A stretch of 64,000 nucleotides of DNA from Ostreococcus lucimarinus (taxonomy: Eukaryota), in assembly GCA_000092065.1 (NCBI GenBank), contig CP000586.1; one strand, written 5' to 3'. Shown in pieces: positions 16,564-44,008 of this stretch. The stretch's first letter is position 1, and each line of letters starts with the position of its first letter. The notes beneath the pieces were generated by a model that saw only the letters and a list, made by a program, of their open reading frames with translations, was not told the DNA's origin and searched no databases. Both the position numbers and the translations under genes were made by a program.

Positions 16564-18275
16564 GGCTCACGCGCTCGCGCGCGCGCGCGCGCCCGCGTCG
16601 CGAGGACGCGCGCCGGCGCGCGCGTCCGCGCCGGCGACCGCGCGACGATGCGTCGCGCGCGCGGCGCCGATCGCCGCGCGCGAAAAGGCTGCGCGCCGCG
16701 TCGCGATCGCGACGCGCGCGAGCGCGGACGCGCGCGGTGAATACGCGTCGCTCGGACAAGTGTGCGCGGGTACGATGAGAGCGCGCGATGCGAGGGCGCG
16801 AGGACGCGAACGCGCGCGGTCGGGGGGAGGGAGGACGGGACGCGGGCGAACGCGACCCTACGCGGCGAGCGGGACGAGACGCGAAGGCGAAGCGACGACG
16901 GCCGCGACGATGGAGGGAGGCCGAGGGATTCGAACGCGCGCGCGCGGTGAACGAAGCACGAGGCGATGGGCGCGCGGGGACTGACGGAGAGATTGATGCG
17001 TTTGCGTCGCGCGCGACAGTGCTCGGAAGCCAGTGGGGCGACGAGGGCAAGGGGAAATTAGTGGATATTTTGGCGCGCGAATACGACGTCGTGGCGAGAT
17101 GTCAAGGCGGTGCGAACGCGGGTCACACTATTTATGACGATGATGGGAAGAAGTACGCGCTGCATCTCGTTCCGAGCGGGATTTTGAATGAAAACGCGAC
17201 GTGCGTCGTCGGCAACGGCGTCGTGGTGCACCTTCCGGGGATGTTTGATGAGATTGACGCTTTATTAAAGGCTGGTGTGGACGCTCGAGGGCGTATGATG
17301 GTGTCTGATCGCGCGCATTTGTTGTTCGATCTTCATAAAGAAATCGATGGCTTGCGCGAGGCGGAGTTGAGTGGGAATAAAATCGGTACGACGAAGCGCG
17401 GCATCGGTCCCGCGTACGCCTCCAAAGCGACGCGCAACGGGGTTCGTTTGGGGGATATTCGAGACGCCGATAAGTTTGCGAACGCTTTGCGCACGCTTGC
17501 GGCGGACGCGGCGGCTCGATTCGATGGTTTCGAGTACGATGTCGAGGCGGAGATTGTGCGATACAGAGAAATCGCGTCGCGCATCGAGCCGTTCATCGCG
17601 GACACGGTCGAGTACGTCAACGACGCGCACAGGAACGGGAAGAAGATCTTAGTCGAGGGTGCGAACGCGACCATGCTTGATTTGGATTTCGGTACGTATC
17701 CGTTCGTGACGTCCTCCAACCCAGCGATTGGTGGCGTTAGCAATGGCCTCGGTTTGGCGCCGAGAAAGTTTGAAACCATCATCGGCGTCGCCAAGGCGTA
17801 CACCACGCGCGTCGGTGCGGGTCCGTACCCGACTGAACTTTTCGGTGACGTCGCCGATAAACTCCGCGAACTCGGCTACGAGTACGGCACCACCACCGGT
17901 CGCCCTCGTCGCATCGGTTGGTTGGACATGGTGGCGTTGAACTACGCCAACCAAATCAACGGCTTCACGCACTTGAATATCACCAAGCTCGACGTATTGA
18001 GCGAGATGGACGAGCTCAAAATCGGCGTCGCCTACGAGCTTCCTAACGGAAAGACCACGACTGCGTTCCCGGCCGACATCGCCACCTTGGAAAATGTCAA
18101 GGTGGTTTACGAAACCTTGCCCGGTTGGAAAACCGACATCGCAAACGTGCGCTCTTGGGACGACATGCCCGAAAACGCCAAAAAGTACATTCTTCGCTGC
18201 GAGGAGCTCTCGGGCGTCGAGTGTCGCTACATTGGCGTCGGCCCGGGTCGCGACGCCATGGTAATTAAACCGTAA
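16562..18275 (+). CDS. Adenylosuccinate synthetase, plastid-type. Two exons: 16562..16769 (transit peptide plus first conserved residues) and 17020..18275
   Basis: Exon 2 carries the whole AdSS domain ([37 protein letters not shown] … [14 protein letters not shown] … [13 protein letters not shown] …). Exon 1 encodes a classic Ala/Arg/Ser transit peptide ([69 protein letters not shown]). Splicing 16769^17020 (phase 1) yields …[21 protein letters not shown]. This matches the plant PURA junction …[20 protein letters not shown], as I recall it. The unspliced frame of the track ORF 16788.. instead gives an acidic, non-conserved N-terminus. Confidence 0.85.
16770..17019 (+). other. Spliceosomal intron (250 nt) of adenylosuccinate synthetase: donor GTACGA, branch GGGACTGACGG at 16977..16987, acceptor CGACAG
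   Basis: Frame change between the transit-peptide ORF (frame of 16562) and the AdSS ORF (frame of 16788). Only this donor/acceptor pair restores the conserved junction. The ACTGAC branch motif sits 37 nt upstream of the AG. Confidence 0.55.
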
Positions 18276-18402
18276 TCGTAATAATACCAGTACTTTCGGA
18301 CGTACAACGCGCGCGCGCGTTCGCCGACCTCGCCCCGCCGCACACCACGCCGCTTCTCGCGTCGCCCGACCCGCGACGCCCGACTCGAGCGCTCAAGTCA
18401 CG

Positions 18403-19218
18403 ATGTCGTCTTTCACCGTCTCTTCGGCGTCGCGCGTCACCGCGCGCGCCGCGACGCGCGTCGCGTCGACGCGCGTCCGCGCGAAAACCTCAAAGTTCGC
18501 GTTCGCCGGCGATCGTCGCCCACGCCGCGACGTCGCGCGCTTCGCGAGCGCCGCGGGCGGCGCCGAGGGCGCGGACCCGTACGCCGTGCTCGGCGTCAAG
18601 CCGGACGCGGACGCGCTGGCGGTGAAGAAGGCGTATAACAGCAAGCAAATGCTGTACAAGGGCGAGGGCGACAAGCTCGCGGCGGTCGAGCGGGCGTACG
18701 AAGCCATCCTGCAAGCTGGCCTGAGCGCGCGATTGAGCGGCAAGGGCGCGGTTGACACGAACGTGCGATTCGCGGATAAGGTGATCCGATCGAAGTGGGC
18801 GCCGCGACCGTGTCCGTCGCCGATGAAGGACGTCGTGGTCAATTACGGATTGACGATGGGGTGCGCGCTCGTCACGCTGGTGACGCCGCCGAACATGCGA
18901 ACGCTGCAAGTGACCATCTTCGCCGCGCTTTTGATGGTGTTCAGGTTCTTTGTGAAACTCGTGGACGTCGATCCGGGTCCTAACGCCGTGCTCGATCCGC
19001 CGGCGGCGCAAAAGCATAACAACGCGAGATTTGCGAGATCCTTCGGCGTCGTCTTGGGGACGTTTGTCGCCACGTTGTTCGTCACGTTTTGGTTGCCGCA
19101 GTTCTTCATCGAGGTGTTGGGGCTGACTGTGCCGGCGTGGGTCATGTTGCACCAGGAAGTTTTCGTGAGCTCTGCGTGCGGGTTCGTCTTAGCGTCGCTC
19201 GTGAGCTTTTATCGATGA
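18403..19218 (+). CDS. Chloroplast-targeted J-like domain membrane protein (tentatively CPP1/CDF1-like)
   Basis: Transit-peptide-like N-terminus (MSSFTVSSASRVTARAATRVASTRVRAKTSKFAFAG). J-like domain lacking HPD (DPYAVLGVKPDADALAVKKAYNSKQMLYKGEGDKLAAVERAYEAI). Three or four C-terminal hydrophobic helices follow. Assignment to the CPP1 family is by architecture only. Confidence 0.6.
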   Translation: MSSFTVSSASRVTARAATRVASTRVRAKTSKFAFAGDRRPRRDVARFASAAGGAEGADPYAVLGVKPDADALAVKKAYNSKQMLYKGEGDKLAAVERAYEAILQAGLSARLSGKGAVDTNVRFADKVIRSKWAPRPCPSPMKDVVVNYGLTMGCALVTLVTPPNMRTLQVTIFAALLMVFRFFVKLVDVDPGPNAVLDPPAAQKHNNARFARSFGVVLGTFVATLFVTFWLPQFFIEVLGLTVPAWVMLHQEVFVSSACGFVLASLVSFYR

Positions 19219-19271
19219 GCGTTGTGTAATATCCGACGTCGCGCTTCACATCTCGACTCTCAGCGCCCGAC

Positions 19272-19970
19272 ATGACTTTCTCCTTTGCTTTAGCGTCGTC
19301 CGACCGTTTCGTTCACATTTCTCGCACATCGTCGCCGCAACGCGTCCGAGCGGCCGTTCGCACGAGCGCATCGCACCGCGGCGACCGCCTCGTCGCCGAC
19401 CGTTCACACGTGACGTTCAAGGACCCCACGACGGAACGTTGGACGATGGTGTATCAGGTCAACCTCCCCGCTTCGAACATGGGCTTGGAGTTCAAAGACG
19501 TCGGCTATGGACCACCGGTGGTTGCAAATATTCCACCAGGCGGATACGCGGCTGCGTACACAGACATCAAGGTGGGAGACGTGTTACTTCGTTGCTCGGC
19601 GCTCGAAATCGACGTACATCACCCACACGTAAAGCCGAGAAAGTTTGAATTCGACGCGCTCGAACCCACGCCGACGGGTCGCTTGCCGTCTTTCGAGACG
19701 TGCATGAATGCGTTGAGATCGACGGCGGTGTACTCGGCCGGTTTCAAACATCTTGAGGTCACGTGCGAGTTCAAGCGCGACATCGACGATCGTGCAGAGC
19801 ACGAGGATTACGCGCGTTTGATGGAAACGATGACACGCGTGGGAAGACTCGAAGCCGATCGAGAAAACGCGGGTGACTACGGCCCGCGCGCGCCGGGCGA
19901 GCACCCCGAAGGCACGCCGAGTGAACCTCTTTACGTCCCCGACGATGGAACGTACCCCGTCGACGATTGA
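19272..19970 (+). CDS. Hypothetical protein with PDZ-like segment and Ser/Arg-rich presequence
   Basis: 232-aa ORF. The segment LGLEFKDVGYGPPVVANIPPGGYAAAYTDIKVGDVLLRCSA resembles a PDZ fold. N-terminus is MTFSFALASSDRFVHISRTSSPQRVRAAVRTSASHRG. Confidence 0.5.
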   Translation: MTFSFALASSDRFVHISRTSSPQRVRAAVRTSASHRGDRLVADRSHVTFKDPTTERWTMVYQVNLPASNMGLEFKDVGYGPPVVANIPPGGYAAAYTDIKVGDVLLRCSALEIDVHHPHVKPRKFEFDALEPTPTGRLPSFETCMNALRSTAVYSAGFKHLEVTCEFKRDIDDRAEHEDYARLMETMTRVGRLEADRENAGDYGPRAPGEHPEGTPSEPLYVPDDGTYPVDD

Positions 19971-20175
19971 CGAACTCTTCGGCGACTGATTTTTCGCGAA
20001 GAAACGCTTTCGAAATCACTTCCGAATCGCTGCCTCACTCGCGTTTTCTTTCTCGCTCGCGCTTTAGATGACGTTCTCTCTGTGTTGTTCTAGTTAGATC
20101 GTCTCAGAGCGAACGGCGACGCGCCCGGAAACGTTCGCGGATTCGCCGCGCGAGGCGCGCGCTTCATTTCTATTT

Positions 20176-23091
20176 TTGATGAATGGGCGTTTCCGAGGGA
20201 GACGAACAGTCGCGACACTCCTCGACGCGCGCATCGCTCTCGCGCGCGCGCGCGTCGTCGTCCTCCCTCGCGCGAAACGTCGCGCCGCGAGCTTCGCATC
20301 GCGCGTCATGCCGCTGTGGCGACCGGCGCGCGAGCGGGACGCCGACGCGCCCGCGACGGTTCGCGAGACGGCGATCGACCCGAGCGCGCCCATCGGCGAG
20401 CTCACGACGTCGATCGCGATCATCGAGCCCTCGGCGCCGCCGGCGAGCGAAATCGAAACGCGCGATGGATTCGCGAAGCGCGACACGCGGTACGTGAGTT
20501 CGGCGGAGTCGTTCGAACGCGGGGACTTGACGCCGCTGTCGCTCGCGGAGACGTGCTGGGTGCTCGCGGCGACGTGCGCGCTGACGGCGTCGTACGTCGT
20601 CGCGTTTTCATCCGTCATTGGATTTGGTTCGACGACGTTTCGAGTTTTACGACGGGATCAAAAAGAAAACGTTCTGCTGGCCGTGAGCGCGGTGATTGCG
20701 TTGATGCTTTACGTCACGGATGCTTCGCATTGGAGAGGCGCTCGAACGCGCTTGGCGAGGGACGTCTTCGTGGGCGTCGCCGCGATACTCGCCGCACTAT
20801 CCCTCGGCCTGAGCGCGTATCGCTACCCTCAAGCGCCACCAACGCTGTATTTAGTGGTGTCACCGCTCGTGTACTCGTATATGCGCACGAAAGTGTTCGC
20901 ACATCGATCGCTGTCGAGCTATCTGAGCGCGATAGCTCGAAGCCTGTACGCGTGCGCCGGCATCGTCGTCATGTGCTTCTTCGTCGAGGCATCGCGCGTG
21001 AACGCTTGGTGGTCGACGTCGTTGGAGCTCAAATACCGTGACGCTATTGGATGCGATTTGGACCTCTCCACCGACTGTCTATCGGCGTACATCATGTGGT
21101 TTTCCCCGTGTCTAGCCGCGCTCGCGAGTTTAATCTTCGCCACGTTTTGCGCGTTGCTGGCGTCTTCCATGCGTTCAAACGACAAGCAAAATGTGCTCAA
21201 CTTCACGATCAAGGCCTTCGGCTGCGGTTTAATTTTCGTCTTTCTCGGAATCTGGGTCGCCGTATCCATCGCGGGCGGCGCAAAACCGCTTTCATCCATC
21301 TTGGTGACGTTTTCCATGGCGGCACTCGTCGTGCTCAGCGGCGCCCTCGTGGCGACGATCGGACTCGACACCATCACGTCCAAAGTCACGTCTGTGCCGT
21401 TGTTCGCGTCGATCATGAATGCCGTGACGGAAAAATACGCCAACGTGTTCAAGGCCATCTTAATTTCGACGCCGTTGACATTTGCGTTTGCGCTGTACTT
21501 AGTGTTGTCCATCGTCAATCAACGCGTTCGCGCGATGTTCGGCACGGCGCCGTCGGAGACGAGCGATTCGCGTTGGTTCACCGCCAAGGTTGCCAAGCAA
21601 TTACAGGAGCTCCGCGATTGGAAATGGTCTCGTATCATGATTAATGTGCACTACTGGATCGCTGTCGTTCTCGCCTTCCAAGTTATCGCCGGTTCGTTCA
21701 CGATCGTCTTTCTGAGCTACTTGCGCGTGCAACTTGCGGCGATTCCAATCGCGCTCGTCTACTTCATCTTCGCCCTCGTCGGATTGGCGATGTTTCTTAT
21801 TCCAATCATTCCTGGCTTACCGGTGTACCTTACGGGTGGAATCATTCTGACGGATAAACCTCTGGTGAACGCCCTCGGCGGTGGCAGCCGTGGATACGTG
21901 TGGGCGTGTTTCTGGGCCGTCGTGCTCTGCTTCGTCATCAAGCTCCTCGCCGTCGTGATGCAGCAAAAAGGCATCGGCGAACGTCTTGGCAATCGCGTGT
22001 GGATTCGAAGTATGGTGAACGTGAACAGTACCACGATGCGATCGATTCGGTATTTGCTCACTCGACCAGGCTTGAACTTTCCGAAAGTTGCAATTCTCGT
22101 CGGTGGACCGGATTGGCCCACGAGCGTGACGACTGGCATCTTACGGCTGAGCGTACGAGAGATGCTCATCGGCACGCTGCCGGTGTTCTTTCTTATCGCG
22201 CCTACGACGTTAGCTGGCGCGTTTATGCTCAAGGCGTCGCACGCTGCGAACGCGAGCGGCATTGACACACTCTGTCGCGAAACCGCCGTCTCTTCGCTCG
22301 CAACGGATGATACCAGCGCGTGGACGTCGATCGCAGACATCGGTTTGCTTTGCACCGGACTCGCGCAGGGGCTCGGGCTCGTCTCCGCGGCGTATTACAT
22401 TGAAAAGACCGCCGTCGAAGCGCGCGAAGCGCTCGATGACATACCATACGACGAAGAAGTCCTCGAGGTTGAACGCGAGGAAGCGCATCGAAACGAACTC
22501 TTGCGCGCAATCTTGCAGTGGGACGAATTGTCCAAAACATCGCGGCGAGCCCTCCTCGCGAGTACGCTCATCGTCATCGCCGCTTTTTGGGGCATCATGT
22601 TTGGGCCGTTTTTCCTCGGCGAAGAAGCCATCGTGCGCGAGTACCTTCTCACGGATTGCGTGTCCACGCGGTTGAACGGGAAAGCGTGGAACATTATGAC
22701 GTCGCTTGGCTGGGCTTTGCTCGCCGTCGTGTGCGCGTCGCTCTTCGTCGTCTCGCGCGTGAACGCGAATGCAAAATATGACGTCGATGCCATCATTGCG
22801 GATGAAGAAGCCTTCATGAAAGAGCTCGAGGGAACGCCCAAACGAGTGTGGGACAAGTGCCCGAATCACGACGAGGCGATAAACGAGGAAAAGTTTCGCG
22901 AGAGGATCGCCGCCGCCCTGACGACGATGTCGCGCAGCCAAATCAAAAGAGTCGATGAAACGATGACAGAGCGCGAGCTCGCGCCGTTCTCTGATGAGAC
23001 GAAGAAGTTCATCCTCGAGAGCATCGAGAGCGCTTTGAGCGCGCGCAATAAGGCGTCTGAAACCAACGCCGGCGCCGCGCCGTCGGCTTAA
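20176..23091 (+). CDS. Large multi-pass membrane protein (about 20 predicted TM helices), unknown family
   Basis: 971-aa ORF dominated by hydrophobic helices, with a C-terminal acidic/helical soluble tail. The real start is possibly the internal MPLWRPARERD (around 20309). Confidence 0.6.
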   Translation: MMNGRFRGRRTVATLLDARIALARARVVVLPRAKRRAASFASRVMPLWRPARERDADAPATVRETAIDPSAPIGELTTSIAIIEPSAPPASEIETRDGFAKRDTRYVSSAESFERGDLTPLSLAETCWVLAATCALTASYVVAFSSVIGFGSTTFRVLRRDQKENVLLAVSAVIALMLYVTDASHWRGARTRLARDVFVGVAAILAALSLGLSAYRYPQAPPTLYLVVSPLVYSYMRTKVFAHRSLSSYLSAIARSLYACAGIVVMCFFVEASRVNAWWSTSLELKYRDAIGCDLDLSTDCLSAYIMWFSPCLAALASLIFATFCALLASSMRSNDKQNVLNFTIKAFGCGLIFVFLGIWVAVSIAGGAKPLSSILVTFSMAALVVLSGALVATIGLDTITSKVTSVPLFASIMNAVTEKYANVFKAILISTPLTFAFALYLVLSIVNQRVRAMFGTAPSETSDSRWFTAKVAKQLQELRDWKWSRIMINVHYWIAVVLAFQVIAGSFTIVFLSYLRVQLAAIPIALVYFIFALVGLAMFLIPIIPGLPVYLTGGIILTDKPLVNALGGGSRGYVWACFWAVVLCFVIKLLAVVMQQKGIGERLGNRVWIRSMVNVNSTTMRSIRYLLTRPGLNFPKVAILVGGPDWPTSVTTGILRLSVREMLIGTLPVFFLIAPTTLAGAFMLKASHAANASGIDTLCRETAVSSLATDDTSAWTSIADIGLLCTGLAQGLGLVSAAYYIEKTAVEAREALDDIPYDEEVLEVEREEAHRNELLRAILQWDELSKTSRRALLASTLIVIAAFWGIMFGPFFLGEEAIVREYLLTDCVSTRLNGKAWNIMTSLGWALLAVVCASLFVVSRVNANAKYDVDAIIADEEAFMKELEGTPKRVWDKCPNHDEAINEEKFRERIAAALTTMSRSQIKRVDETMTERELAPFSDETKKFILESIESALSARNKASETNAGAAPSA

Positions 23092-23129
23092 GACTACGCA
23101 AACTCATCTTTTAACCTTTCACAATTACG

Positions 23130-24305
23130 CTAATCGCTATCGCTGTCGTGTCTCCTTCTACCTTCGTCTCGCCGCCGTTTCGGCGATCGAGATCGAGAGC
23201 TCGTCCCGGACGAACTTCTCGAGCGGCTCGAAGAGTCGTCGCGACGGCGTCTGCGCGTTCGGCTGTCGCTTCTCGAATCGCGCCGGCGTCTCGGCGGCGA
23301 ACGACTTCTCGAATCGCTGCTCGAGTAAGACGACGATCTACTATAACTCCGCGAGCGACTGCTGTCGCGCTCGCGCGAGCGGCCGCGCGGCGGCGGAGGC
23401 ACATCCACCTGTCGCGGCGGCGGCGGAGGCACTTCGGCGACGCGGCGCTGCGGCGGCGGCGGAGGCACTTCAGCCACGCGCTGCGATGGCGGCGGAGGCA
23501 CGTCCACGCGTCGGCGCTCGTCAACCACCGCGGATGGACGCGCGTTCGGATCCAAACCTCGACGCTTAATCTCCGCGTCGACGACGTCCAATTCCTCTCG
23601 GAAGCGCGCCGCGTTTCTCTTCGCGTCCTCCGCCTCTCGCTCGCCGCGTCTCTTCGACTTCTCCCTGCGCTCTCTCTCCTTGCGCTCCCTCTTCTCCCGT
23701 TTCTTCGCCCGTTTCTTCGCCTTCTTCTCCCGCTTCTCCGCCCTCCGTCGCTCCCTCGCTCGTCGCCGTTCTTCCTCCTCCCTCGCCGCGCGCTTCTCCT
23801 CTCGCAACGTCTGTTGCAGCTCCCGATCGAACGCGTCCCCCTCCCTCGCGTCTCGCTCCCTCTTATCCACCCCGAACGCCCGCGCCAGGCGTTCCATCTC
23901 TTCCTCTTTCCTCTGCATCACCCCGTGCGTGCTCTCGTCCCTCGCCTCGCTCTTCGCCTTCGTCGCCGTCTCTCGCCTTCGCCGCAGCGCGTCTCGCCCG
24001 TCTCGCCGCGTCTTCTCGATCGCCGCCTCGATCGCCCCCTCGCTCGCCCCCTCGCTCGCCATGCGTTCCTCCAGCTCCGCGCACGCCACCTCGATCGCTC
24101 GCAGCGCGTTGTGCTCGAGGATCGCCGCGCTCGGCCGTCGCGTCGTCGTCGCGCCGGCGCCGCCGTCGCGATCCCTCGCGCGCCATCCCTCGTTCGTTTT
24201 CGCGTCTCGCGTCAGTCTCGACGCGTCGCGATGGAACTTGTTCGTCTGGACGTACCCGGACGTGCCGGAGCCGCGCGCGCTGGCGAGGCCGACGCCGTTG
24301 CGCAT
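23130..24305 (-). CDS. Cwc21/SRRM2-like splicing-associated SR protein (cwf21 N-terminal motif, charged coiled coil, PPPP and RS-rich tail)
   Basis: Start MRNGVGLASARGSGTSGYVQTNKFHRDASRL matches the Cwc21/SRRM2 N-terminal consensus (MYNGIGLxTPRGSGTNGYVQRN). A Glu/Arg/Lys-rich coiled coil follows, then VPPPPSQRVAEVPPPPPQRR and RS dipeptide repeats (SRSRSYSRSSSYSSSDSRSRSPPRRRRDSRS). The 5' part of the track ORF (24306..25499) is antisense to the Mpv17 gene. Confidence 0.65.
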   Translation of the reverse strand: MRNGVGLASARGSGTSGYVQTNKFHRDASRLTRDAKTNEGWRARDRDGGAGATTTRRPSAAILEHNALRAIEVACAELEERMASEGASEGAIEAAIEKTRRDGRDALRRRRETATKAKSEARDESTHGVMQRKEEEMERLARAFGVDKRERDAREGDAFDRELQQTLREEKRAAREEEERRRARERRRAEKREKKAKKRAKKREKRERKERERREKSKRRGEREAEDAKRNAARFREELDVVDAEIKRRGLDPNARPSAVVDERRRVDVPPPPSQRVAEVPPPPPQRRVAEVPPPPPRQVDVPPPPRGRSRERDSSRSRSYSRSSSYSSSDSRSRSPPRRRRDSRSDSRTRRRRRDDSSSRSRSSSGTSSRSRSPKRRRDEGRRRHDSDSD

Positions 24306-25653: not shown

Positions 25654-26777
25654 TTAGCTCTCTTGGTCAAAAATACCAGCGTGAGTATCCGTCGAGCACA
25701 TGAAGAGCGGATTTTCCACCGTCATCACGCGCTTTTCGTTATCGATGAGCGTGCGCAGCGGCTTGGGCAGCGCAAACATGCGCCTGTGCGACACGGTGTC
25801 GTAAAACTTCATCTCTAATCCACGCTTTTTCAAAGTCTCGTCCGCGTCGACGCCGCTCAAGTCGATGCTCGTGTCGTTTACGGCGAGATTGAAACCCCAC
25901 TCTGACGTGAACGACGGCACGCACATGGTGTAACCGTAAACTTTCGGGAACACTTGCGTCAGAGTGTGATGAATCGGTGAGAAGACGTGATGCGCATCGC
26001 GCACGGACGCGCATCCGCTCTGCGTGACGAAGATTCCTCCCGGCGCGAGCTTCTTGCTCAGCAATCGATAGAAATCCGTCGTGTACAGTTGATAGCACGG
26101 CCCCCCATCGAGCGGGTCGCTCAAATCCATGATGATCACGTCAAAGCTCCCATCGGGCTCGTTCGCCAATCCTTCCTTCGCGTCGCCGATGATCAAACGC
26201 GTTCGTTTATCCCCGTACGCCCCCGCGCTGTAAAACGGCGTGTGCTCTCGGCACATGTTCACCACGTCGCCGTCGATGTCCACCATCACGCACTCCTCCA
26301 CGCTCTCGTGCCTCAACACCTCGCGCAGCGTCGCTCCCTCGCCACCGCCACCGATGAACACCCGCTTCGGGTTCGCGTGCGCCACCAGCGCCGGATGCGC
26401 CAGCGACTCGTGATACACGTACTCGTCGTGCTCGCTCGACTGCATCAACCCATCCGTGATGAGAAGCGACCCGAACGGCACCGTCCGCACGACCTCGACC
26501 TCTTGAAACTTCGACGTCCCCTGATACAGCACCTCCTCGACCTATCGCGCGCGCCGTCGTCGTCGTCGTCGTCGTCAGTCCTCCCTCGCGCGCGTCCCGC
26601 GTCGTCGCGTCGCCGCTCGCGTCCCATCGTCCCATCGTCCCGCCCCCTCGCGTCGCGTCGCGTCGCGTCTTCGCGCACCCGATAGCTCAGCGCGAGCCCA
26701 TCCTCGAGGAGTTCGTGGTACCAGTGCCCCTCGGCGAACGTCTCGGCGCCGTACGCGCTCGGCTCGGCGTCCGCCAT
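25654..26777 (-). CDS. Spermidine synthase (aminopropyltransferase). Two exons: 26679..26777 and 25654..26541
   Basis: Exon 2: VEEVLYQGTSKFQEVEVVRTVPFGSLLITDGLMQSSEHDEYVYHESLAHP … VFIGGGGEGATLREVLRH … DVIIMDLSDPLDGGP. Exon 1: MADAEPSAYGAETFAEGHWYHELLEDGLALSYR. The spliced junction …ALSYR|VEEVLYQGTSKFQEV aligns with human SRM …[20 protein letters not shown], as I recall it. Confidence 0.85.
26542..26678 (-). other. Spliceosomal intron (137 nt) of spermidine synthase: donor GTGCGC, branch GGACTGACGACG (plus-strand GTCAGTCC at 26573..26580), acceptor GATAG
   Basis: Exon 1 (frame of track ORF 26445..26894) and exon 2 (frame of 25654..26532) are in different frames. An in-frame TAG sits immediately before exon 2. 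The junction restores conserved ortholog sequence. The branch motif is 31 nt from the AG. Confidence 0.75.
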
Positions 26778-30037: not shown

Positions 30038-31031
30038 ATGAAATCAGAAAGTCAACCGATGTCGGCGCCGCACTTCGAGGCGCACATGACGTTCGAGCTC
30101 ACGCCCCGCGCGCTCAAACGCGCGTGCTTAGATCAAAACGGGTGCGTCAAACGAATGCGCGGCTGCGACCCTTCGAAATTCGCGCACGCGAGCCGCGCGA
30201 ATGCCACCGCTGAACGCTCTCGTTTGACTCGCGCGCAGATATTCCACTCCAGAGCTCAACGAGGTGCTCTACCTTCATCACAGAGGCATCGTCGAGCTGC
30301 GGCACTTCGAGCCGTATTCAAATTTACGGTGCTTGCACCTCGAGTGCAACGCCATATCTTCGCTCGACGGTTTGCGAGCTTTGACCGAGCTCTCGCAGCT
30401 GTGCGTCGACGGCAACGCGTTGCGCGACTTGCGCGGCGTCGAACGCTTGACAAAACTTCGGCATCTCAACGCGAACGATAACGTGATCGAGACCTTGGAA
30501 CACGCGCGCGGCCACGGGGCGTTAGAAACGCTGTGCGTGCGCGGGAACCGTCTTCGAGACGTGGGCAAGGCGTTGGAGCCGCTGCGAGCGTGCGCGGCGC
30601 TGCGATCGCTCGACGTCTCTCGCAACGACATCGACATCGACGCGGCCACGGACGACGACGCCCGCCGAGGCTTGCTCGAGGCGTTATCACACGTCTCAAA
30701 CGTCGAACTGCTGTATTTCGCCGACGGTAACCCCGCGTCGCGCTCGACCGAGGCCTATCGCGCCGTCGTCGTCGAAGCCCTCCCTCGCCTCCGCTGGCTC
30801 GACGACGCGCCCGTCGACGCCACCTCCCGCCGACTCGCCGCCGCTCGCCTCCTCGACGGCGTTCGAGGCGAAATCCAAGCCCAACGAGACGTCGCCGTCG
30901 AGCGTCGTCGCCGCGCCGACGCCGAGCACGCCGCCTTCCCCGTCGCGTGCGCCGCCGTCGCGCGCGCCCGCCGCGCGCGTCCCGTCGCCGACGTCGACGC
31001 CCTCGACGCCCTCGACGCCCATCTCGCGTGA
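30038..31031 (+). CDS. Dynein axonemal assembly factor 1 (DNAAF1/LRRC50/ODA7)-like leucine-rich-repeat protein. Two exons: 30038..30141 and 30239..31031
   Basis: Spliced product …RACLDQNGYSTPELNEVLYLHHRGIVELRHFEPYSNLRCLHLECNAISSLDGL… aligns with human DNAAF1 …[46 protein letters not shown]…, as I recall it. LRRs continue (LSQLCVDGNALRDL, LRHLNANDNVIETL, LETLCVRGNRLRDV, LRSLDVSRNDIDID) with an LRR-cap-like LLYFADGNPASR. Confidence 0.7.
30142..30238 (+). other. Spliceosomal intron (97 nt) of DNAAF1-like gene: donor GTGCGT, branch-like CTGAAC/TTGACTC, acceptor GCGCGCAG
   Basis: Exon 1 is in the frame of track ORF 30038..30481 and exon 2 in the frame of 30264..31031. Only the 30141^30239 junction (phase 2) recreates the conserved YxTPxLNxxLYLH block. 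Confidence 0.7.
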
Positions 31032-33625: not shown

Positions 33626-34278
33626 TCCTAGTCGCGAATCTTAGAATATTTCATTTCAATCGTAGCATAGCGTTCATAGAGCACCGCTCGCTCAACCGCA
33701 ATGAAATTTCTCGCGCGAAAATGTTGAAAATCGATAGCTTGCATATACATATACCCGAGTGTCCGATAAACACGTTGCGGTGTCGCGAGAAAAAGCGCAC
33801 TTCGTAAAGTGCCGCATTGCGTCGCGAACGCGCCCGCGCGTCGACGTCTCGCCCCGCGCGAGCGCACGCGCGCGCGCGAACGATCGAGCGAAACACTCCC
33901 GTCCGTCTTTCGCCCATCGCGCGCATCGCGCGTCGTCGCGCGCGTCGTCGCGCGCGATGTTTCACCACGCCGCGACCGGCGCGTTCGCGCCGCGGCGAAT
34001 GCCGACGCCGCGCGACGACGCGCGCGGGAACGCGAGCGCGCGCGCGTCGAACGACGCGATGCAACGCATTTCGTGCGACGCGCGCGTGGGATCGGAGGGC
34101 ATCGTCAGGCGACCGACGCCGAGACTCGGCGGGAAAGGTGCGACGAGGGACAATCCGACGTGGACGCGCGGCGAGGGTTTCCTGGACGCGAACGCGAACG
34201 CGAACGCGAACGCGGACTGACGACGCGCGAGCGAGCGATGACGCAGGACCGAGCGCGCTGGAACGAGAGTTGAAGGCG

Positions 34279-35181
34279 ATGCAACGAGGAGGGAGCGAAC
34301 GGGACGGCGGGGACGCGTCGGGGCGAGAGGCGGAGCGAGCGTTTCACAGCGTGCACGATTTGGTGCACTACGCGATTTTGTCGCAACCGAACGCGTTGGC
34401 GAGCCTGCGGATGATTTATTCGATTTGTCAGCGCGCGGGGAGGATCGCGAGCAAGCATGGTGCGGGATCGAGGTTGATCACGGCGAATGAACACTGGAAA
34501 TCGCAGATTAGACACGCGTTGTATACGTCGCCGAGGTTTAAGAGAATCGGGAGCGACGATTGGGGCGTCGCCGCGGGGCACTCGGCGATGCCGGATACGA
34601 CGACGGTCTACGTGAGTAAGGATGAACGGAAGAACGCAGAAAAGACGCATGCGGTGAGTCGCGCTTCGACGGTTTCATCGTATTCGCATAAGTCGCTCTC
34701 GTCGCCGAAAAAGCGACGCTTGTCGACGAGCGCGTCTGTGAAGCCGGCGTCCAAGGCCGATGAATATAGATCATCCACTGAGCCGGAGACGGTTTCCATG
34801 CTCGCGCTCGAGGGCGAGAAAGCGTTAAAACTACTTCATTCGGCGAGTGGGCACTCAGGAAGCGCGCAAAGCGCGTTGTCGATGGAAGACGCCGTTGGCG
34901 CCGGATCGAGAACGGGCCGAACGATGACGAAGAGTCCGAGCCCAAGACAGCGTTCGCACTCACGCTCGCGCTCGCGCTCGTGCTCGCCCGAGCCACGTGA
35001 AAGCTCCACGCTCGTGGTCGTGGCAGGGCTATTAGAGCACGAGGGCAAGGTTCTGCCACGCGATTTTCGTCGAAACAGACGTAAACCTTTCGGTGGAGGG
35101 CATCACGCCGCCATGCCCGCGGACAGCGAGTGCCGCGTGGACCAGTCGCCCTGCCCCGTGACCGGGCTAGATTCGTACTAG
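34279..35181 (+). CDS. Forkhead-like winged-helix domain protein with Ser/Arg-rich C-terminal region (start uncertain; possible upstream exon)
   Basis: Encodes HSVHDLVHYAILSQPNALASLRMIYSICQRAGRIASKHGAGSRLITANEHWKSQIRHALYTSPRFKRIG. This parallels forkhead helices H1–H3 (…[36 protein letters not shown]…WQNSIRHNLSLNDCFVKV). Start placed at MQRGG (ATG at 34279). The upstream part of the track ORF (33817..34278) is Arg-rich and shadow-like. Confidence 0.5.
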   Translation: MQRGGSERDGGDASGREAERAFHSVHDLVHYAILSQPNALASLRMIYSICQRAGRIASKHGAGSRLITANEHWKSQIRHALYTSPRFKRIGSDDWGVAAGHSAMPDTTTVYVSKDERKNAEKTHAVSRASTVSSYSHKSLSSPKKRRLSTSASVKPASKADEYRSSTEPETVSMLALEGEKALKLLHSASGHSGSAQSALSMEDAVGAGSRTGRTMTKSPSPRQRSHSRSRSRSCSPEPRESSTLVVVAGLLEHEGKVLPRDFRRNRRKPFGGGHHAAMPADSECRVDQSPCPVTGLDSY

Positions 35182-39360: not shown

Positions 39361-39391
<31 letters not shown>

Positions 39392-40719
39392 CGATGGACG
39401 CCGATCGAGGCGACGGAGAGGCGCGAGAGGCGCGGCGTAAAAGACCCGAGGTGTGGCGACCGGGATCGGCGGAAGACGAGGACGTGGAGCTGGAGTACGA
39501 CGAGAGCGCGTACGACGCGCTGCACGCGTTTTCGCACGAGTGGCCGTGCCTGTCGCTGGACGTGATGAGGGATGATTTAGGCGAAGGAAGGGAGGTGTTC
39601 CCGCACGAGATGACGATCGTGACGGGAACGCAAGCGATGGAGGCGACGAAGAACGTGCTGAGCGTGATTAGGGTGAGTCGGATTAAGAAGACGCGGCGAG
39701 ACGCGGACGCGGACGAGGACATGGAGGCGAGCGATAGCGACGACGACGAGGACGGTGGGTCAGACGCGCCGACGTTGACGGTGGCGAGCGTGGTGCATCA
39801 TGGATGCGTGAATAGATTGCGAGCGATGCCGCAAAGACCGAGCACGTGCGCGAGTTGGAGCGATTCTGGGCACGTGATGATTTGGGATTTGAGCGCGCAG
39901 TTGAAAAAGGTGATGACGTCGACGAACGATTCCAAGGGCAAGATCGATCCACCGTCTCGAGTGACGCCTACGCAAGTGTTCACGGGTCATAAAGACGAAG
40001 GCTACGCCCTTGATTGGTCCTCGGTGTGCGAGGGAAGGCTCGCGAGTGGTGATTGCGCCGGGGCGATTCACACGTGGGACATGGTGCAAGGTAAGTGGGA
40101 CGTCGGCGCGACGCCGTACACCGGGCACTATTCGAGCGTGGAGGACATCCAGTGGTCCCCGACCGAGCGAGATGTGTTCATATCGTGCTCTGCCGATCAA
40201 ACGGTGTGCGTGTGGGACACGCGACAGCGCGCAAAGCCGGCGTTGCGCGTCAAGACGCACGACTCGGACGTCAACGTTCTGTCGTGGAACAGACTCGCCA
40301 ACAGCATGGTCGCCACAGGCGCCGACGACGGATCGTTGCGAATCTGGGATCTTCGCAACTTTAACGAAACCAACGCGCAATTCGTGGCCAACTTCACCTT
40401 CCACCGTGCCGCGGTGACGTCCGTGGATTGGGCGCCGTTCGACTCAGCCATGCTCGCCTCTTCCTCCGCCGACAACACCGTCTGCGTGTGGGATTTAGCC
40501 GTCGAGCGCGACGCCGAGGAAGAAGCCGCCGCGCTCGCGGCGAAGGATAACGCCGCGCCGCCCGAGGACCTTCCTCCGCAGCTCATGTTCGTCCATCAAG
40601 GCTTGAAGGATCCAAAGGAAATCAAGTGGCACCGTCAAATCCCGGGCGCGTGCGTCACCACCGCCGCCGACGGCTTCAACATTTTCAAAGCCTACAACGT
40701 CGGCCCCGCCGTGCCGTGA
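39268..40719 (+). CDS. GRWD1: Glutamate-rich WD-repeat protein 1 (GRWD1/Rrb1), ribosome biogenesis
   Basis: Acidic N-terminus, then VFTGHKDEGYALDWSSVCEGRLASGDCAGAIHTWD, SVEDIQWSPTERDVFISCSADQTVCVWDTR, GADDGSLRIWDLRNF, VCVWDLAVERDAEEEAA and LPPQLMFVHQG. These are colinear with human GRWD1 blocks as I recall them (FAGHMGEGFALDWS…SVEDLQWSPTE…IWDLRQF…WDLAVERDPEAG…LPQQLLFVHQG). Start placed at MPRLPERA (ATG at 39268). Confidence 0.85.
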
Positions 40720-40760
40720 TTCGAGCCTACAACGTCGGCCCCGCCGTGCCGTGATTCGAG
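40691..40760. repeat. Perfect 35-bp tandem duplication (cctacaacgtcggccccgccgtgccgtgattcgag x2) spanning the GRWD1 stop codon
   Basis: Copy 1 (40691..40725) encodes the last residues …AYNVGPAVP plus the TGA at 40717..40719. Copy 2 (40726..40760) is an exact repeat in the 3' UTR. Confidence 0.85.
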
Positions 40761-40883
40761 CGCGCGCGCGTCGACGCATATCGCACGTCGCGCTAGAGCT
40801 CTATAATATCAATACAACACACTACGACTACCACGCTACGTTTCTACGTCTCTCGGTTCCGTCCCGAACCGCGAGGTCTCCAT

Positions 40884-41177
40884 CTACCCCCACGCCGGCG
40901 TCGTCGAGTAAAACACCACCAACCGTCCGCCCTCATCGTTCCGCTCCCCGTATCCATCGCACAGCGCCCCCACGCGCGCGTCGTAGCTCGGCGTGAACGC
41001 CGCGCCGAGGTACGCGAACGCGCGCTCGCGCTTGATGAGTTTGCTCAGGTGCGCGACGACGTCCTCGAACCGCGCGTCCGCGCGCACGCGTACCTTGTTC
41101 TGACGCAAGATCGGCGCGTCGCCCGTGGCTTTGAAGAGCACGACGACGCGCCGCGACGGGTCGAGGTCGGGAGGCAT
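40884..41177 (-). CDS. ATG12: Ubiquitin-like autophagy protein ATG12
   Basis: MPPDLDPSRRVVVLFKATGDAPILRQNKVRVRADARFEDVVAHLSKLIKRERAFAYLGAAFTPSYDARVGALCDGYGERNDEGGRLVVFYSTTPAWG. It ends with the conjugation Gly and aligns with plant ATG12 ([22 protein letters not shown]…LFVYVNSAFSPNPDE…GKLVVNYACSMAWG). The start is placed at the second Met of the track ORF. The first Met (41255) would leave only 4 bp to the upstream GST stop. Confidence 0.8.
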   Translation of the reverse strand: MPPDLDPSRRVVVLFKATGDAPILRQNKVRVRADARFEDVVAHLSKLIKRERAFAYLGAAFTPSYDARVGALCDGYGERNDEGGRLVVFYSTTPAWG

Positions 41178-41259
41178 CGAGCGAGGGTCGCGAAGTGCGG
41201 CGCGTCGCGAGCGTCGGCGAAAAGACAAAACGGCGTCGGAAGTTACAAAGCTCATCTCC

Positions 41260-42288
41260 TCATCTCGGGTACGGACCGTCGCGACCGTGCGCGGCGTCTA
41301 AATCGACGTTCGGACCGCACGGTACGATGGCGTGCGGGTTCAGGCTCGGATGACTGGCGAAGTAGTGCTGTTTGATGTGCGCGAAATCCGTCGCTCGTCG
41401 CAGCGCCGGCATCTGATAGAGCTCTCGCACGTACGCCCCCATGTGCTCGTATTGGTGGATGAATTTTTTGTTCGTCTTGAAGTACACGACGTAGACTTCG
41501 TCGAATCTGATCAAAGTCATGAAAAGTCGAACGTCGGCTTCGGTGAAGACATCGCCGGCGATGTACCGCGAGCGCGCGAGCAACTCCTCGCATCGGTCCA
41601 ACGCTGAAAACAGATTCTTCACCGCTTCGTCGTACGCGCTCTGCGATACGGCGAACCCGCACTTGTACACGCCGTTGTTGATATCATCGTAAACCCACTG
41701 ATTGATCTCGTCGATCTTGGGACGTAAGTGCTCGGGATATAAATCCACCTCTCGCGCCGCGTCGCTCGAGCAAAAATCTTGAAATTTTGTATTCAATTCT
41801 CTCAATATCTCGCTGCTCTCGTTATTCACGATCGTTTTTCGTAAAGTGTCCCAAATCAAAGGCACCGTGAATCGCTGTTCGGTCGGTGCGCCACAGATCT
41901 CGTACAAATCTCTCACGAATTCCGCGCCCTCGCACGCCGTCGCGGAGCACCGAGCGTCGGCCTCAAACGCTCCTCTCCCGCTCGGTCCCGTCACGACGGT
42001 TCCCGGCTTCACGAACCGCCATCCCGCGTGCGCGTCGTTCGGGTCGTTCGGTCGAGTCTTACCCCACACGGGATGCGTCACCGCGACGTCGAGGACGTCC
42101 TCGAGGCCTTTCGCGCGCAAAGCGGCCAGGCACCTCGTGGCCCACGGGCACGCTAAACTGACGACTAAGACGTAGCGGTGCGCCTCGGGCGGGTGCGCGC
42201 CGTTCGCGTCGAACGCGTTTCTGAACGTCGACGCTTTCCTGGCGAAAGCGCCGGTGGGGGAGACGTCGGCGACGGCGGTGCGATCCAT
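41260..42288 (-). CDS. Xi-class glutathione transferase / glutathionyl-hydroquinone reductase (ECM4/YqjG-like)
   Basis: CPWA active-site context YVLVVSLACPWATRCLAALRAKGLEDVLDVAVTHPVWGK. Further conserved blocks: TVPLIWDTLRKTIVNNESSEILRELN, NNGVYKCGFAVSQSAYDEAVKNLFSALDRCEELLARSRYIAGDVFTEADVRLFMTLIRFDEVYVVYFKTN. Confidence 0.9.
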   Translation of the reverse strand: MDRTAVADVSPTGAFARKASTFRNAFDANGAHPPEAHRYVLVVSLACPWATRCLAALRAKGLEDVLDVAVTHPVWGKTRPNDPNDAHAGWRFVKPGTVVTGPSGRGAFEADARCSATACEGAEFVRDLYEICGAPTEQRFTVPLIWDTLRKTIVNNESSEILRELNTKFQDFCSSDAAREVDLYPEHLRPKIDEINQWVYDDINNGVYKCGFAVSQSAYDEAVKNLFSALDRCEELLARSRYIAGDVFTEADVRLFMTLIRFDEVYVVYFKTNKKFIHQYEHMGAYVRELYQMPALRRATDFAHIKQHYFASHPSLNPHAIVPCGPNVDLDAAHGRDGPYPR

Positions 42289-42558
42289 GGCGATGAATGA
42301 ATGGCCGCCGCGGCGCGGTGTGCGGCGCTCGGGACGCGTCTTCGGGACGGGGTCGGACGGTGAAATAAGTCTTGAGAACGATCGTTACAAGGAATGAGAG
42401 AACGATCGGTGCCGTGAGATATTGATAGATGCGCGCGGTGACTCGGAGAGTTCGATTCTGCGGGAGGAGACGAAACGCGGCGCGCGTCAGTCAAAGCTCT
42501 CGGCGATTCGCGTCGGGACGCCGTCGAATAGTCGAGTAGGGGCGCATCGCGGTTAATT

Positions 42559-44008
42559 TTACGTACACGCTTCGTCCAAGGCGGCGACACCCGGCAAGAC
42601 CTTGCCCTCGAGTAATTCGAGGGAGGCACCACCGCCGGTGGAGATGTGAGACATCTTGTCCGCGAGGCCAGCCTTTTCGACGGCGGCGACGGAGTCGCCA
42701 CCACCGATGATCGTGATGCCGTTCAAGTTCGCGAGGGTGTCGGCGATACCGAAGGTACCCTTGGCGAAGGCGTCCATTTCGAACACACCCATCGGACCGT
42801 TCCAGATGACGGACTTGCACTCGTTGAGTTCGCCTTGGAACGCCTTGAGGGAGTCCGGACCGATGTCGAGACCCATCCAGCCTTCCGGAATGTTGTCGAC
42901 GGAGACGATTTGCGTCTTGGCATCTTCGGCGAACTTGTCCGCGACGACGACGTCGGTCGGGAGCAAGATCTTCACGCCCTTGGCTTCAGCCTTGGCCATG
43001 AGTTCCTTGGCGAGGTCGATCTTGTCGTCTTCAACGAGGGACGCGCCGACGGACTTGCCGAGCGCCTTGTAGAAGGTGAAAATCATACCGCCGCCGAGGA
43101 TAATCTTGTCCGTCTTTTGCAACAAGGACTCGATGACGCCGATCTTGGAGGACACCTTAGAGCCACCGACGATGGCGCAGAACGGGCGTTCCGGGTTGGA
43201 GACCGCACCGTCGAGGTAGTCGAGTTCCTTTTGGAGCAAGAAACCGGCGACGTTCGTCTTGCAGTACTTGGTCACGCCCTCGGTGGAGGCGTGCGCGCGG
43301 TGCGCGGTTCCGAACGCGTCGTTCACGAAGATCGTCGCGCTGCCCGCGAGCTTCTTCGCGAAGTCAGAGTCGTTCTTCTCTTCTTCCTTGTAGAAGCGCG
43401 TGTTCTCGAGCAAGCACACGGAGCCGTTCGGCATGGACGCGACCGCCTTCGCGACTTCGTCGCCGACGCAGTCGTCCACCTTCGTCACCGGGCACGACAA
43501 CTTCTCGGACAATCGCGCCCCGACCGGGGTCAATCGGAACTTATCCTCCGGTCCGTTCTTCGGTCGGCCCTATTTTTGCGCGCGTCGTCGTCCCCCTCGT
43601 CAGTCGCTCGCGTCTCGTCGCCCCTCGTTCGTCTCGATCCGATTCGCGGATAAGTGGATAAACCACCCTCTCGTCGCGCGCGCGCCGATCGCGATGATCA
43701 CGCACCAAGTGCGACGTCACGAGCACCTTGGCGCCGTTCTTCGCCAGGTACTCGAGCGTCGGGATCGCCGCGCGAATGCGCGTGTCGTCCGTGATGTTCA
43801 GGTCCGCGTCCATCGGCACGTTCAGGTCGCATCGCACGAACACGGTTTGGCCCTTGAGGTCGCTCTCGGCGAGGTCGCCGACGGATTTCTTCTTCGCCTC
43901 GACGACGACGGCGGCGCGCGTCGCCGCGGGGCGCGCGCGGGGCGCGGAGAGTCGTTGGCGGGGCGCCGCGGCGGGCTTGAAGCCGGTGAACGTGGCGAGC
44001 GATTGCAT
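42559..44008 (-). CDS. PGK: Phosphoglycerate kinase, plastid-targeted. Two exons: 43706..44008 and 42559..43570
   Basis: Exon 1: [101 protein letters not shown]. Exon 2: [25 protein letters not shown]…[29 protein letters not shown]…[19 protein letters not shown]…[42 protein letters not shown]. The junction SHL|GRPK is the universally conserved PGK sequence. Confidence 0.9.
43571..43705 (-). other. Spliceosomal intron (135 nt) of PGK: donor GTGCGT, branch GACTGACGAGG (plus-strand GTCAGTC at 43600..43606), acceptor AAAATAG
   Basis: Exon 1 (frame of track ORF 43541..44095) and exon 2 (frame of 42559..43533) are in different frames. The unspliced read-through gives non-PGK sequence ([12 protein letters not shown]…). 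The branch motif is 29 nt from the AG. Confidence 0.75.

Follow-up and report, generated by a model that had tools for sequence, protein, structure and literature searches.

Evidence that seven segments in 64 kb of Ostreococcus lucimarinus nuclear DNA are strong-signal U2-type introns

The window analysed here is a 64-kb stretch of nuclear DNA from Ostreococcus lucimarinus CCE9901, with a GC content of about 62% and introns that are sparse and long; its source chromosome measures 818,664 bp. The genes of interest encode a chloroplast-type adenylosuccinate synthetase (AdSS), a spermidine/thermospermine synthase (SpdS/ACL5), an LRR/DNAAF1-like protein, a forkhead-domain protein, PGK and an RsmC-like methyltransferase (Table 1). 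A sequence-only reading had proposed one intron in each of the AdSS, SpdS, LRR/DNAAF1-like and PGK genes, and the donors it had named for them (GTACGA, GTGCGC and, for the latter two, GTGCGT) were all found where it had placed them. It had also suggested that the shared signals could be used for re-annotation, and a scan of the window with these signals did locate three further introns, in the forkhead gene, at the 3' end of PGK and in the methyltransferase gene. All seven removed segments begin with GT and end with AG. The branch motifs listed are candidate branch sites, assigned by consensus.

Table 1. Exons, introns and signal look-alikes in the window, with candidate branch motifs
Feature	Position	Strand	Length (nt)	Donor	Candidate branch (position)	Branch to AG (nt)	3' end	Remarks
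AdSS exon 1	16562..16769	+	208					ATG 16562; phase-1 end
Decoy donor	16762..16767	+		GTGCGC				consensus-like, unused; 8 nt upstream of real AdSS donor
AdSS intron	16770..17019	+	250	GTACGA	GGACTGACG (16978..16986)	34	CAG	spacing from branch A
Exonic full-grammar match	24189..24255	-	67	GTACGT	GAGACTGACGCG	22	AG	false positive within Cwc21/SRRM2-like CDS 24305..23130
SpdS/ACL5 exon 1	26679..26777	-						
SpdS/ACL5 intron	26542..26678	-	137	GTGCGC	GGACTGACG (26581..26573)	32	TAG	
SpdS/ACL5 exon 2	25654..26541	-						
LRR/DNAAF1-like exon 1	30086..30141	+						likely true start ATG 30086; MTFELTPRALKRACLDQNG
LRR/DNAAF1-like intron	30142..30238	+	97	GTGCGT	TTGACTC (30224..30230)	10	CAG	phase 2
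LRR/DNAAF1-like exon 2	30239..31031	+						
Forkhead exon 1	33957..34137	+						
Forkhead intron	34138..34246	+	109	GTGCGA	GGACTGACG (34214..34222)	25	CAG	phase 1; absent from earlier reading
Forkhead exon 2	34247..35181	+						
PGK exon 1	43706..44008	-						
PGK 5' intron	43570..43705	-	136	GTGCGT	GACTGACG (43605..43598)	29	TAG	phase 0
PGK exon 2	42567..43569	-						
PGK 3' intron	42458..42566	-	109	GTACGT	GACTGACG (42492..42485)	28	CAG	absent from earlier reading
Methyltransferase exon 1	50951..52837	-						
Methyltransferase intron	50664..50950	-	287	GTACGT	GACTGAC (50690..50684)	20	AAG	phase 0; absent from earlier reading
Methyltransferase exon 2	49953..50663	-						

Five of the seven introns (AdSS, SpdS, both PGK introns and forkhead) were observed to be removed exactly in transcript-like contigs (L001 and L006-L012). 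In the Logan contig L001 the AdSS intron is missing to the nucleotide and exon 1 runs directly into exon 2; since this contig retains the exon through position 16769, the decoy donor is skipped. The SpdS intron is missing from L006 and the forkhead intron from L011 and L012, and its splicing passes over two nearer AGs, located +10 and +14 from the branch A. Both PGK introns are missing from four JGI contigs (L007-L010; 3' junction 42567|42457), each from a separate sample; they match the window at 100% identity, begin at the PGK ATG and finish 54-97 nt past the stop codon. The RNA origin of L001, L006, L011 and L012 is deduced from their lack of the introns. A transcript contig was also sought for the methyltransferase intron and none was obtained.

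Protein evidence agrees with these junctions. Splicing of the four proposed introns restores the reading frame, and the unspliced frames hit stops or shift frame. The spliced AdSS (487 aa) and forkhead (371 aa) products each have an exact match in the protein collection, and the SpdS (328 aa; XP_001418368.1), PGK (435 aa, ending '...ALDEA'; XP_001418373.1) and fused methyltransferase (865 aa; XP_001418376.1) products are identical to RefSeq proteins of O. lucimarinus CCE9901. Alignments with PDB orthologues are free of gaps over the AdSS, SpdS and PGK junctions, the best match of SpdS being thermospermine synthase 6bq2, and the alignment of the methyltransferase to the T. thermophilus RsmC-like protein 2zul spans its junction with a one-residue gap. 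Furthermore, reading through the methyltransferase intron gives a frame shift in a related strain (P0068), and the NCBI model ABO96450.1 has the same forkhead junction. The O. tauri orthologue lies on CAID01000006.2; the O. tauri AdSS model (P0022) has an identical junction, with 'VCA|' before the join, and the AdSS intron of that species (GTGCGT..TGGACTGACGAG..TAG) carries the same signals.

The first exon of the GenBank model ABO96441.1 falls within the true AdSS intron, so the earlier AdSS model corrects it and bears out the annotation value of the signals. The 5' intron of PGK is real as proposed, though its claimed extent of 43571..43705 was off by one at the start; 43570..43705 alone restores the SHL|GRPK frame and matches the transcript contigs. 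PGK had been taken to be otherwise intronless, which is contradicted by its transcript-confirmed second intron (42458..42566), whose splicing forms the stop codon by joining T|AA.

Of the four introns proposed originally, those of AdSS, SpdS and PGK are thus spliced out in transcript-like contigs, and the LRR/DNAAF1-like intron is supported by the conservation of its position in related loci. The exon-1 peptide of this gene is kept in the window and in four related loci (L004, L013, L014 and L015), all beginning at the equivalent ATG. The intron position, its phase and the GG|GT..AG|R-TAC context are common to all five loci, and the intron body has diverged. A search for a transcript or annotation match for this intron found none. 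ACTGAC does not occur in this intron, where the branch candidate with the best conservation is TTGACTC, 10 nt from the AG and outside the usual 20-35 nt; TTGAY lies 10-14 nt upstream of the AG in the window and in all four related loci.

The shared signals were formulated as a GTGCGTG donor, an ACTGAC/GACTGACG branch and 20-35 nt to the AG, and the window was scanned on both strands (128 kb). All seven donors fit GT[GA]CG. ACTGAC was found in six of the seven introns and GACTGACG in five, and in the same six, with the LRR intron as the exception, the branch lies 34, 32, 25, 29, 28 or 20 nt from the AG. Donor pentamers were observed at chance frequency in the window (GTGCG 333 times against 331 expected; GTACG 193 against 194), at a density of about 4 per kb per strand, and therefore the donor alone is uninformative. 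As a chance donor occurs about every 240 nt per strand in this CG-rich genome, it is the branch heptamer, together with its distance from the AG, that carries most of the discriminating information. GACTGACG occurs 6 times in the window (3.1 expected), and six of the seven copies of the heptamer GACTGAC on both strands are the candidate branch sites of the introns. The strict full grammar gave 7 matches where 2.7 +/- 1.6 were expected (P about 0.02), 6 of which are at independently verified splice junctions, and the branch-anchored scan recovered six of the seven introns with one false positive. A pyrimidine tract is missing between branch and AG in four of the seven introns, which are purine-rich.

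The false positive (24189..24255) is exonic: its GTACGT codes for G-Y-V of the conserved N-terminal 'GSGTSGYVQ' motif of a Cwc21/SRRM2-like protein. It was rejected as an intron because removal of the 67 nt breaks the frame and the read-through N-terminus is that of ABO96660.1 (NCBI) and of a JGI 'SRRM2' cluster. This one exonic match to the full grammar shows that the signals alone are insufficient.

Introns close to the 5' end are usual in intron-poor unicellular genomes and are generally ascribed to 3'-biased, reverse-transcript-mediated intron loss. The 5'-proximal location that had been proposed holds for five of the seven introns, and fails for two that lie towards the 3' end of their CDS, namely the PGK 3' intron and the methyltransferase intron. 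With the latter located at nt 1887 of a 2598-nt CDS (73%), a position close to the 5' end is a tendency and not a rule. A 5' bias of introns in intron-poor unicells is stated in PMC3488318.

Taken together, the four proposed segments and the three added ones are almost certainly U2-type (GT-AG) spliceosomal introns of the strong-signal class found outside the atypical half of chromosome 2. For 319 EST-confirmed O. lucimarinus introns outside chromosome 2, Irimia & Roy (2008; PMC2483917) reported ACTGAC in 87.2% and GACTGACG in 66.5%, a GTGCGTG donor (4.8 bits), a branch-to-AG distance of 20-35 bp and a preference for CGCAG. The window introns agree with this class in donor, branch motif and spacing, with the LRR intron excepted for the last two. 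They are also alike in species, in length (about 100-300 nt), in the CGCAG-type 3' end (three of seven here) and in their intron-poor, GC-rich context, and no essential difference was noticed; the LRR intron would belong to the ~13% minority without ACTGAC, with a spacing of 10 nt. The donor, branch and AG signals were thus already described for O. lucimarinus in 2008, so the observation is correct yet ordinary, and not new.

Several other explanations were weighed. If there were no splicing, the motifs would fall together by chance, and sequencing errors or pseudogenes would account for the frame breaks, as the chance-level donor pentamers, the roughly 2.7 strict matches expected and the exonic full-grammar match might suggest. 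This is already refuted for AdSS, SpdS, both PGK introns and forkhead, the five introns absent to the nucleotide from 8-9 independent contigs (L001 and L006-L012 by name); spliced products equal RefSeq proteins, orthologues align over the junctions, and the likelihood of this explanation is virtually nil. The intron-less contigs might instead be genomic DNA from strains that have lost the introns (a presence/absence polymorphism), given that L001 and L011 cover several neighbouring genes on both strands and that L001 is just 99.3-99.8% identical to the window. However, overlapping transcripts are expected in a very compact genome, the four PGK contigs are mRNA-like in identity, sample origin, ends and the loss of both introns, and every one of the five introns tested would need to be absent from nature but kept in the reference. 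We consider such losses extremely unlikely, and even then their exactness would still mark true intron boundaries. Another explanation is that the introns are mobile 'introner' copies, as in Micromonas, with signals in common through shared ancestry. Introner elements are known in Mamiellales, the group of O. lucimarinus, and four of the seven introns do look alike by eye, being G/A-rich with many GACGCG-type runs. In an all-against-all BLAST of the seven introns, nevertheless, the only matches were short or out of register, at ~75% within low-complexity GACGCG runs; apart from the donor and branch motifs no homology was in register, and intron lengths are spread over 97-287 nt. In addition, the AdSS and LRR positions are conserved across species with diverged bodies, which argues for old introns rather than recent insertions, and we give the introner explanation hardly any credence.

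A further alternative concerns recognition: strict-signal introns could be read by a modified U2/SF1 interface or an additional snRNP set, apart from the weak-signal splicing of chromosome 2, a possibility that Irimia & Roy (PMC2483917) raised and called worth exploring. Canonical U1 does not pair with the C at donor position +4, nor does canonical U2 with the flanking Gs of the branch octamer, and the missing pyrimidine tract in four of the seven introns points the same way. On the other side, the one U1 of Mamiellales carries the standard ACUUAC pairing region despite GTGCGY-type donors ('GYGCGY' in the source; bioRxiv 10.1101/2022.06.08.495308), O. tauri snRNAs were found as single copies only, and Irimia & Roy favour a single spliceosome (PMC2483917). 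A search of the 64-kb window for snRNA genes found none. Specialised recognition is regarded as very unlikely.

For the U2-type introns proposed here, general knowledge of the spliceosome would have the 5' end, GU(G/A)CG(U/C/A), recognised by U1 and then by U6, and the extended branch (G)ACUGAC(G) bound by SF1/BBP and then paired to the GUAGUA box of U2. The second A of the branch motif would be bulged as the nucleophile, and the acceptor would be the AG some 20-35 nt downstream. It is conceivable, if unlikely, that introns are defined primarily by the branch octamer GACUGACG and its AG spacing, and not by the 5' splice site or any pyrimidine tract; the SF1/U2 (or U2AF) interface might have changed in this lineage to read such a signal. 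A primary signal of this kind would fit the chance-level donor, the four purine-rich introns and the six candidate branch sites among the seven GACTGAC copies.

Known systems resemble these introns to different degrees. Introns of hemiascomycete yeasts (GTATGT ... TACTAAC ... AG) share the intron-poor genome, the near-invariant donor and branch motifs, the incomplete pairing of the donor with canonical U1 and the 5'-biased gene position. They differ in the motifs themselves (GTATGT and ACTAAC against GTGCGT and ACTGAC), and O. lucimarinus has a GC-rich genome, with two of the seven window introns placed towards the 3' end of their CDS. The introner elements of Micromonas, reportedly described by Worden in 2009 and Simmons in 2015 (PMC4540971), likewise occur in Mamiellales green algae as GC-rich introns with GTGCG-type donors, but there the bodies are multi-copy and alignable, whereas the window introns share splice signals and low-complexity composition only. 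The small, atypical introns of Ostreococcus chromosome 2 share the genome and presumably the spliceosome; they are dense, 40-65 bp long and weak in donor (GTRNGT, 1.9 bits) and branch, against 97-287 nt and strong signals here. Minor (U12-type) introns, with a RTATCCTT donor and a TCCTTAAC branch, were rejected as the window donors and branch motifs are unlike this consensus.

The discovery value of these observations is small: a 2008 paper on O. lucimarinus already gave the donor, the branch motif and the spacing and tied them to intron poverty, and a 2022 report found no compensating change in the U1 of Mamiellales. In the CG-rich O. lucimarinus genome, scanning by donor alone is of no use. 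The practical use is in annotation, where a branch-anchored scan works and where a GenBank model was shown to begin inside a real intron.

The introns of the AdSS, SpdS, LRR/DNAAF1-like and PGK genes are canonical U2-type introns. Unspliced, each of these genes meets stop codons or the wrong frame. Introns were absent from transcript-like contigs and intron positions were conserved; the joins in contigs L001 (AdSS), L006 (SpdS) and L007-L010 (PGK), together with the conserved LRR and AdSS positions, support the spliceosomal reading. The donor, branch and AG motifs proposed for the four introns are present where the sequence-only reading had placed them, and its coordinates stand for AdSS, SpdS and LRR while the PGK intron is longer by one base (43570..43705, not 43571..43705). 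Three further introns were located by following the remaining motif matches in the window.

Introns and rejected intron candidates, with their signals
Feature	Coordinates	Strand	Signals and remarks
AdSS intron	16770..17019	+	GTACGA, GGACTGACG at 16978..16986, branch A to AG 34 nt, 250 nt, phase 1
SpdS intron	26542..26678	-	GTGCGC, GGACTGACG, branch to AG 32 nt, 137 nt, phase 0
LRR/DNAAF1-like intron	30142..30238	+	GTGCGT, TTGACTC 10 nt before AG, 97 nt, phase 2
Forkhead-domain gene intron	34138..34246	+	GTGCGA ... GGACTGACG ... 25 nt ... CAG; preceded by 181 nt of coding sequence
PGK second intron	42458..42566	-	GTACGT ... TTGACTGACGCG ... 28 nt ... CAG; L007-L010 junction
PGK 5' intron	43570..43705	-	GTGCGT, GACTGACG, branch to AG 29 nt, 136 nt
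Methyltransferase intron	50664..50950	-	GTACGT ... GATGACTGACACC ... 20 nt ... AAG
False positive of full grammar	24189..24255	-	exonic; GTACGT ... GAGACTGACGCG ... 22 nt ... AG
Rejected ACTGAC+AG candidate	4088..4247	+	antisense to gene
Rejected ACTGAC+AG candidate	42028..42175	+	antisense to gene
Rejected ACTGAC+AG candidate	9906..10108	-	after stop codon
Rejected ACTGAC+AG candidate	51300..51361	-	exonic, in CDS of exactly matching XP_001418376.1
ACTGAC+AG candidates	457..708, 47474..47534	-	no frame break

The Logan contig L001 aligns to 14811..16769 and then to 17019/17020..18440, and the AdSS junction is spanned without a gap by plant AdSS (1dj2/1dj3) in the PDB orthologue alignment. The O. 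tauri AdSS intron is found at the same codon position with GTGCGT ... TGGACTGACGAG ... TAG as its signals. A consensus-like GTGCGC located 8 nt upstream of the true donor is unused. The GenBank/UniProt model ABO96441.1/A4RYD2 (428 aa, ...VLGSQ... at the junction) starts at an ATG within the true intron (16788..17019, +), so that the 69-residue, transit-peptide-like N-terminal exon backed by L001 and the O. tauri model is missing from it. The suggestion that the grammar is useful for re-annotation was borne out here as the proposed 487-aa model, with which L001 and the O. tauri model agree, corrects ABO96441.1.

The spliced SpdS model (26777..26679 with 26541..25654, -) is identical at every residue to XP_001418368.1. 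L006 joins 26679 to 26541 and the junction aligned gap-free to PDB orthologues, the best match being thermospermine synthase 6bq2. The nearest relative of this 'spermidine synthase' gene (25654..26777, -) is thermospermine synthase ACAULIS5 (PDB 6bq2, E = 2e-74), matches to spermidine synthases being weaker (E about 1e-45), and its UniRef name is thermospermine synthase.

In PGK, only an acceptor at 43570 restores 'VTSHL/GRPKNG', which makes the 5' intron one base longer than earlier stated. In contigs L007-L010 (JGI, four different samples), which match the window at 100% identity, 43706 is followed directly by 43569, and this junction is gap-free in the alignment to the PDB orthologue 7zy7. 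The description of the genes as otherwise intronless fails for PGK, where the same contigs reveal the second intron. Its donor and the stop codon of the unspliced frame overlap; once the intron is removed, T (42567) meets AA (42457..42456) so that the protein ends in '...ALDEA' and stop, and the 435-aa product is XP_001418373.1. The unspliced 3' end would add Cys-Thr before an in-frame TAA and the two products differ by these two residues only. The 5' ends of the PGK contigs L007-L010 (44008/44009, -) and of L006 (26778, -) lie at the start codon or 1 nt upstream, reflecting either a near-absent 5' UTR or an assembly or coverage artefact.

The spliced forkhead product (371 aa) gave an exact match and the intron is missing from contigs L011 and L012. 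Splicing bypasses two earlier AGs, at +10 and +14 relative to the branch A. Positions 1..1911 of L012 (Logan, SRR23599312) have no match to the window while the remainder is the spliced forkhead gene from 33927 on; this first 1.9 kb points to chimeric assembly or to a neighbourhood rearranged in that sample.

Removal of the methyltransferase intron fuses a 692-aa ORF with a 227-aa RsmC-like one, the junction falling at nt 1887 in a CDS of 2598 nt. This intron is supported by the identity of the 865-aa product with XP_001418376.1, by an alignment to the Thermus RsmC-like protein 2zul that spans the junction and by a related strain (P0068) in which the read-through is frame-shifted. The 2zul match came from a PDB sequence search; Pfam did not detect the RsmC N-terminal domain across the junction. 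A look-up of XP_001418376.1 gave no contigs that could serve as transcript support. Inside this intron, another branch and acceptor pair, ATTACTGACGGG ... 28 nt ... AAAG, occurs at 50819 and may be an alternative 3' splice site. With it, an in-frame segment of 132 nt (50819..50950, -) would be spliced out, and the protein would stop after 20 more residues and lack the methyltransferase domain; this 648-aa product is absent from the protein collection.

Exact look-ups of three spliced LRR/DNAAF1-like models gave no matching transcript or annotated protein. The start codon and the exon-1 peptide M-x-F-E-L-T-P-R-A-L-x-R-A-C-L-D-Q-x-G, ending GG at the junction, are common to the window and four related loci (L004, L013, L014 and L015), as are a GT(G/A/T)CG donor, TTGAY 10-14 nt before the AG and the exon 2 start R-TAC-GCC, with intron bodies that cannot be aligned. 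The LRR intron is thus supported by the conserved start, donor, TTGAY and junction context, which also move the likely start codon to ATG 30086. As the branch candidate, TTGACTC is favoured over CTGAAC, which lies 23-24 nt from the AG.

JGI names one relative of this gene (30086..31031, +) 'dynein assembly factor 1, axonemal', and the DNAAF1-like label, which rests on LRR Pfam matches, is best read as putative. Ostreococcus has no flagellum. The DNAAF1-like gene is nonetheless present and kept with its intron in all four loci. As far as their flanks extend, L004 and L013 have the same neighbouring genes: a PROPPIN gene lies downstream, and an upstream Rad17/AAA gene was called in L004 only.

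From general knowledge of the spliceosome, U1/U6 would act at the GUGCGU donor and SF1, then U2, at ACUGAC with its bulged A, with the AG picked 20-35 nt downstream of the branch. Bodies of the seven introns are mutually unrelated apart from low-complexity GACGCG runs, which rules out introner-type repeats. In four introns (16770..17019, 26542..26678, 34138..34246 and 43570..43705) the sense strand is rich in purines (62-69% R, only 4-12% T) and the stretch from branch to AG lacks a pyrimidine tract (26-44% Y); in the remaining three this tail is pyrimidine-rich (62-73% Y). The proposed 5'-proximal placement holds for five of the seven introns, none of which lies beyond 23% of the CDS, and fails for two at 73% and 100%.

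Donors GTGCG (333 copies vs 331 expected) and GTACG (193 vs 194) and their hexamers occur on both strands at the frequency of second-order Markov shuffles, about 4 per kb per strand, so that no enrichment exists and a donor alone is no evidence of an intron. The window has 6 copies of GACTGACG, with 3.1 expected, and 7 of GACTGAC; the strict donor, branch and AG combination gives 7 matches vs 2.7 +/- 1.6 expected, of which six sit 20-34 nt upstream of independently verified splice acceptors. The intron information is carried by the branch motif, not the donor, and the window alone suggests a sensitivity of about 6/7 and a false-discovery rate of about 1/7 for a branch-anchored scan. A relaxed grammar (GT[GA]CG + YTGAC + AG) was unusable, giving dozens of in-ORF false positives. 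A 110-nt gap between two minus-strand ORFs (2247..2357) was rejected as an intron: it is intergenic and AT-rich, and it has a new ATG.

The single non-intronic copy of GACTGAC (about 5 expected) raised the question of selection against the motif there. It is absent from antisense strands too and the shorter ACTGAC shows no such shortage (about 10 copies outside introns vs 12.8 expected), and selection was therefore dropped in favour of chance or composition. The one false match, at 24189..24255, falls within the roughly 2.7 expected by chance; its GTACGT codes G-Y-V of the N-terminal 'NGVGLASARGSGTSGYVQ' motif of a Cwc21/SRRM2-like protein. Loss of the 67 nt would disrupt the reading frame, and the NCBI model has them as coding sequence. 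The simplest reading is chance, with unproductive regulatory splicing as a less likely alternative. The sole exonic full-grammar match lies in a spliceosome-component gene, whose cluster members JGI names SRRM2.

With spliced products that are O. lucimarinus CCE9901 proteins (the gene for XP_001418368.1 lies on a chromosome of 818,664 bp), a G+C content of ~62% on average and an O. tauri AdSS orthologue on scaffold CAID01000006.2, the window belongs to the ordinary portion of a prasinophyte genome, where introns are few. Six intron-containing genes were identified in the 64 kb (gene total approximate), the same order as the genome-wide share of about 16-20% of O. lucimarinus genes with introns (PMC2367439). 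No Rfam family reached the gathering threshold anywhere in the window, hence no snRNA gene for a co-evolution test.

Irimia and Roy (2008, 'The Peculiar Case of Ostreococcus', PMC2483917) described 319 introns of O. lucimarinus that are confirmed by ESTs and lie outside chromosome 2, with ACTGAC in 87.2% and GACTGACG in 66.5%, GTGCGTG (4.8 bits) as an atypical consensus at the donor, a branch-to-AG peak at ~20-35 bp and a preference for CGCAG. Mamiellales prefer a GTGCGY-type donor (spelled 'GYGCGY' in the source) and their U1 retains the standard pairing sequence (2022 preprint, 10.1101/2022.06.08.495308), and a 5' bias of introns is textbook knowledge for unicellular eukaryotes with few introns (PMC3488318). 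Every element of the grammar was therefore already described for O. lucimarinus and its novelty is nil. Apart from one coordinate that is wrong by a single base and one over-generalisation, the observations of the sequence-only reading were essentially right. Its interpretation is supported, and its remaining value is modest and lies in annotation, where the AdSS model is corrected.
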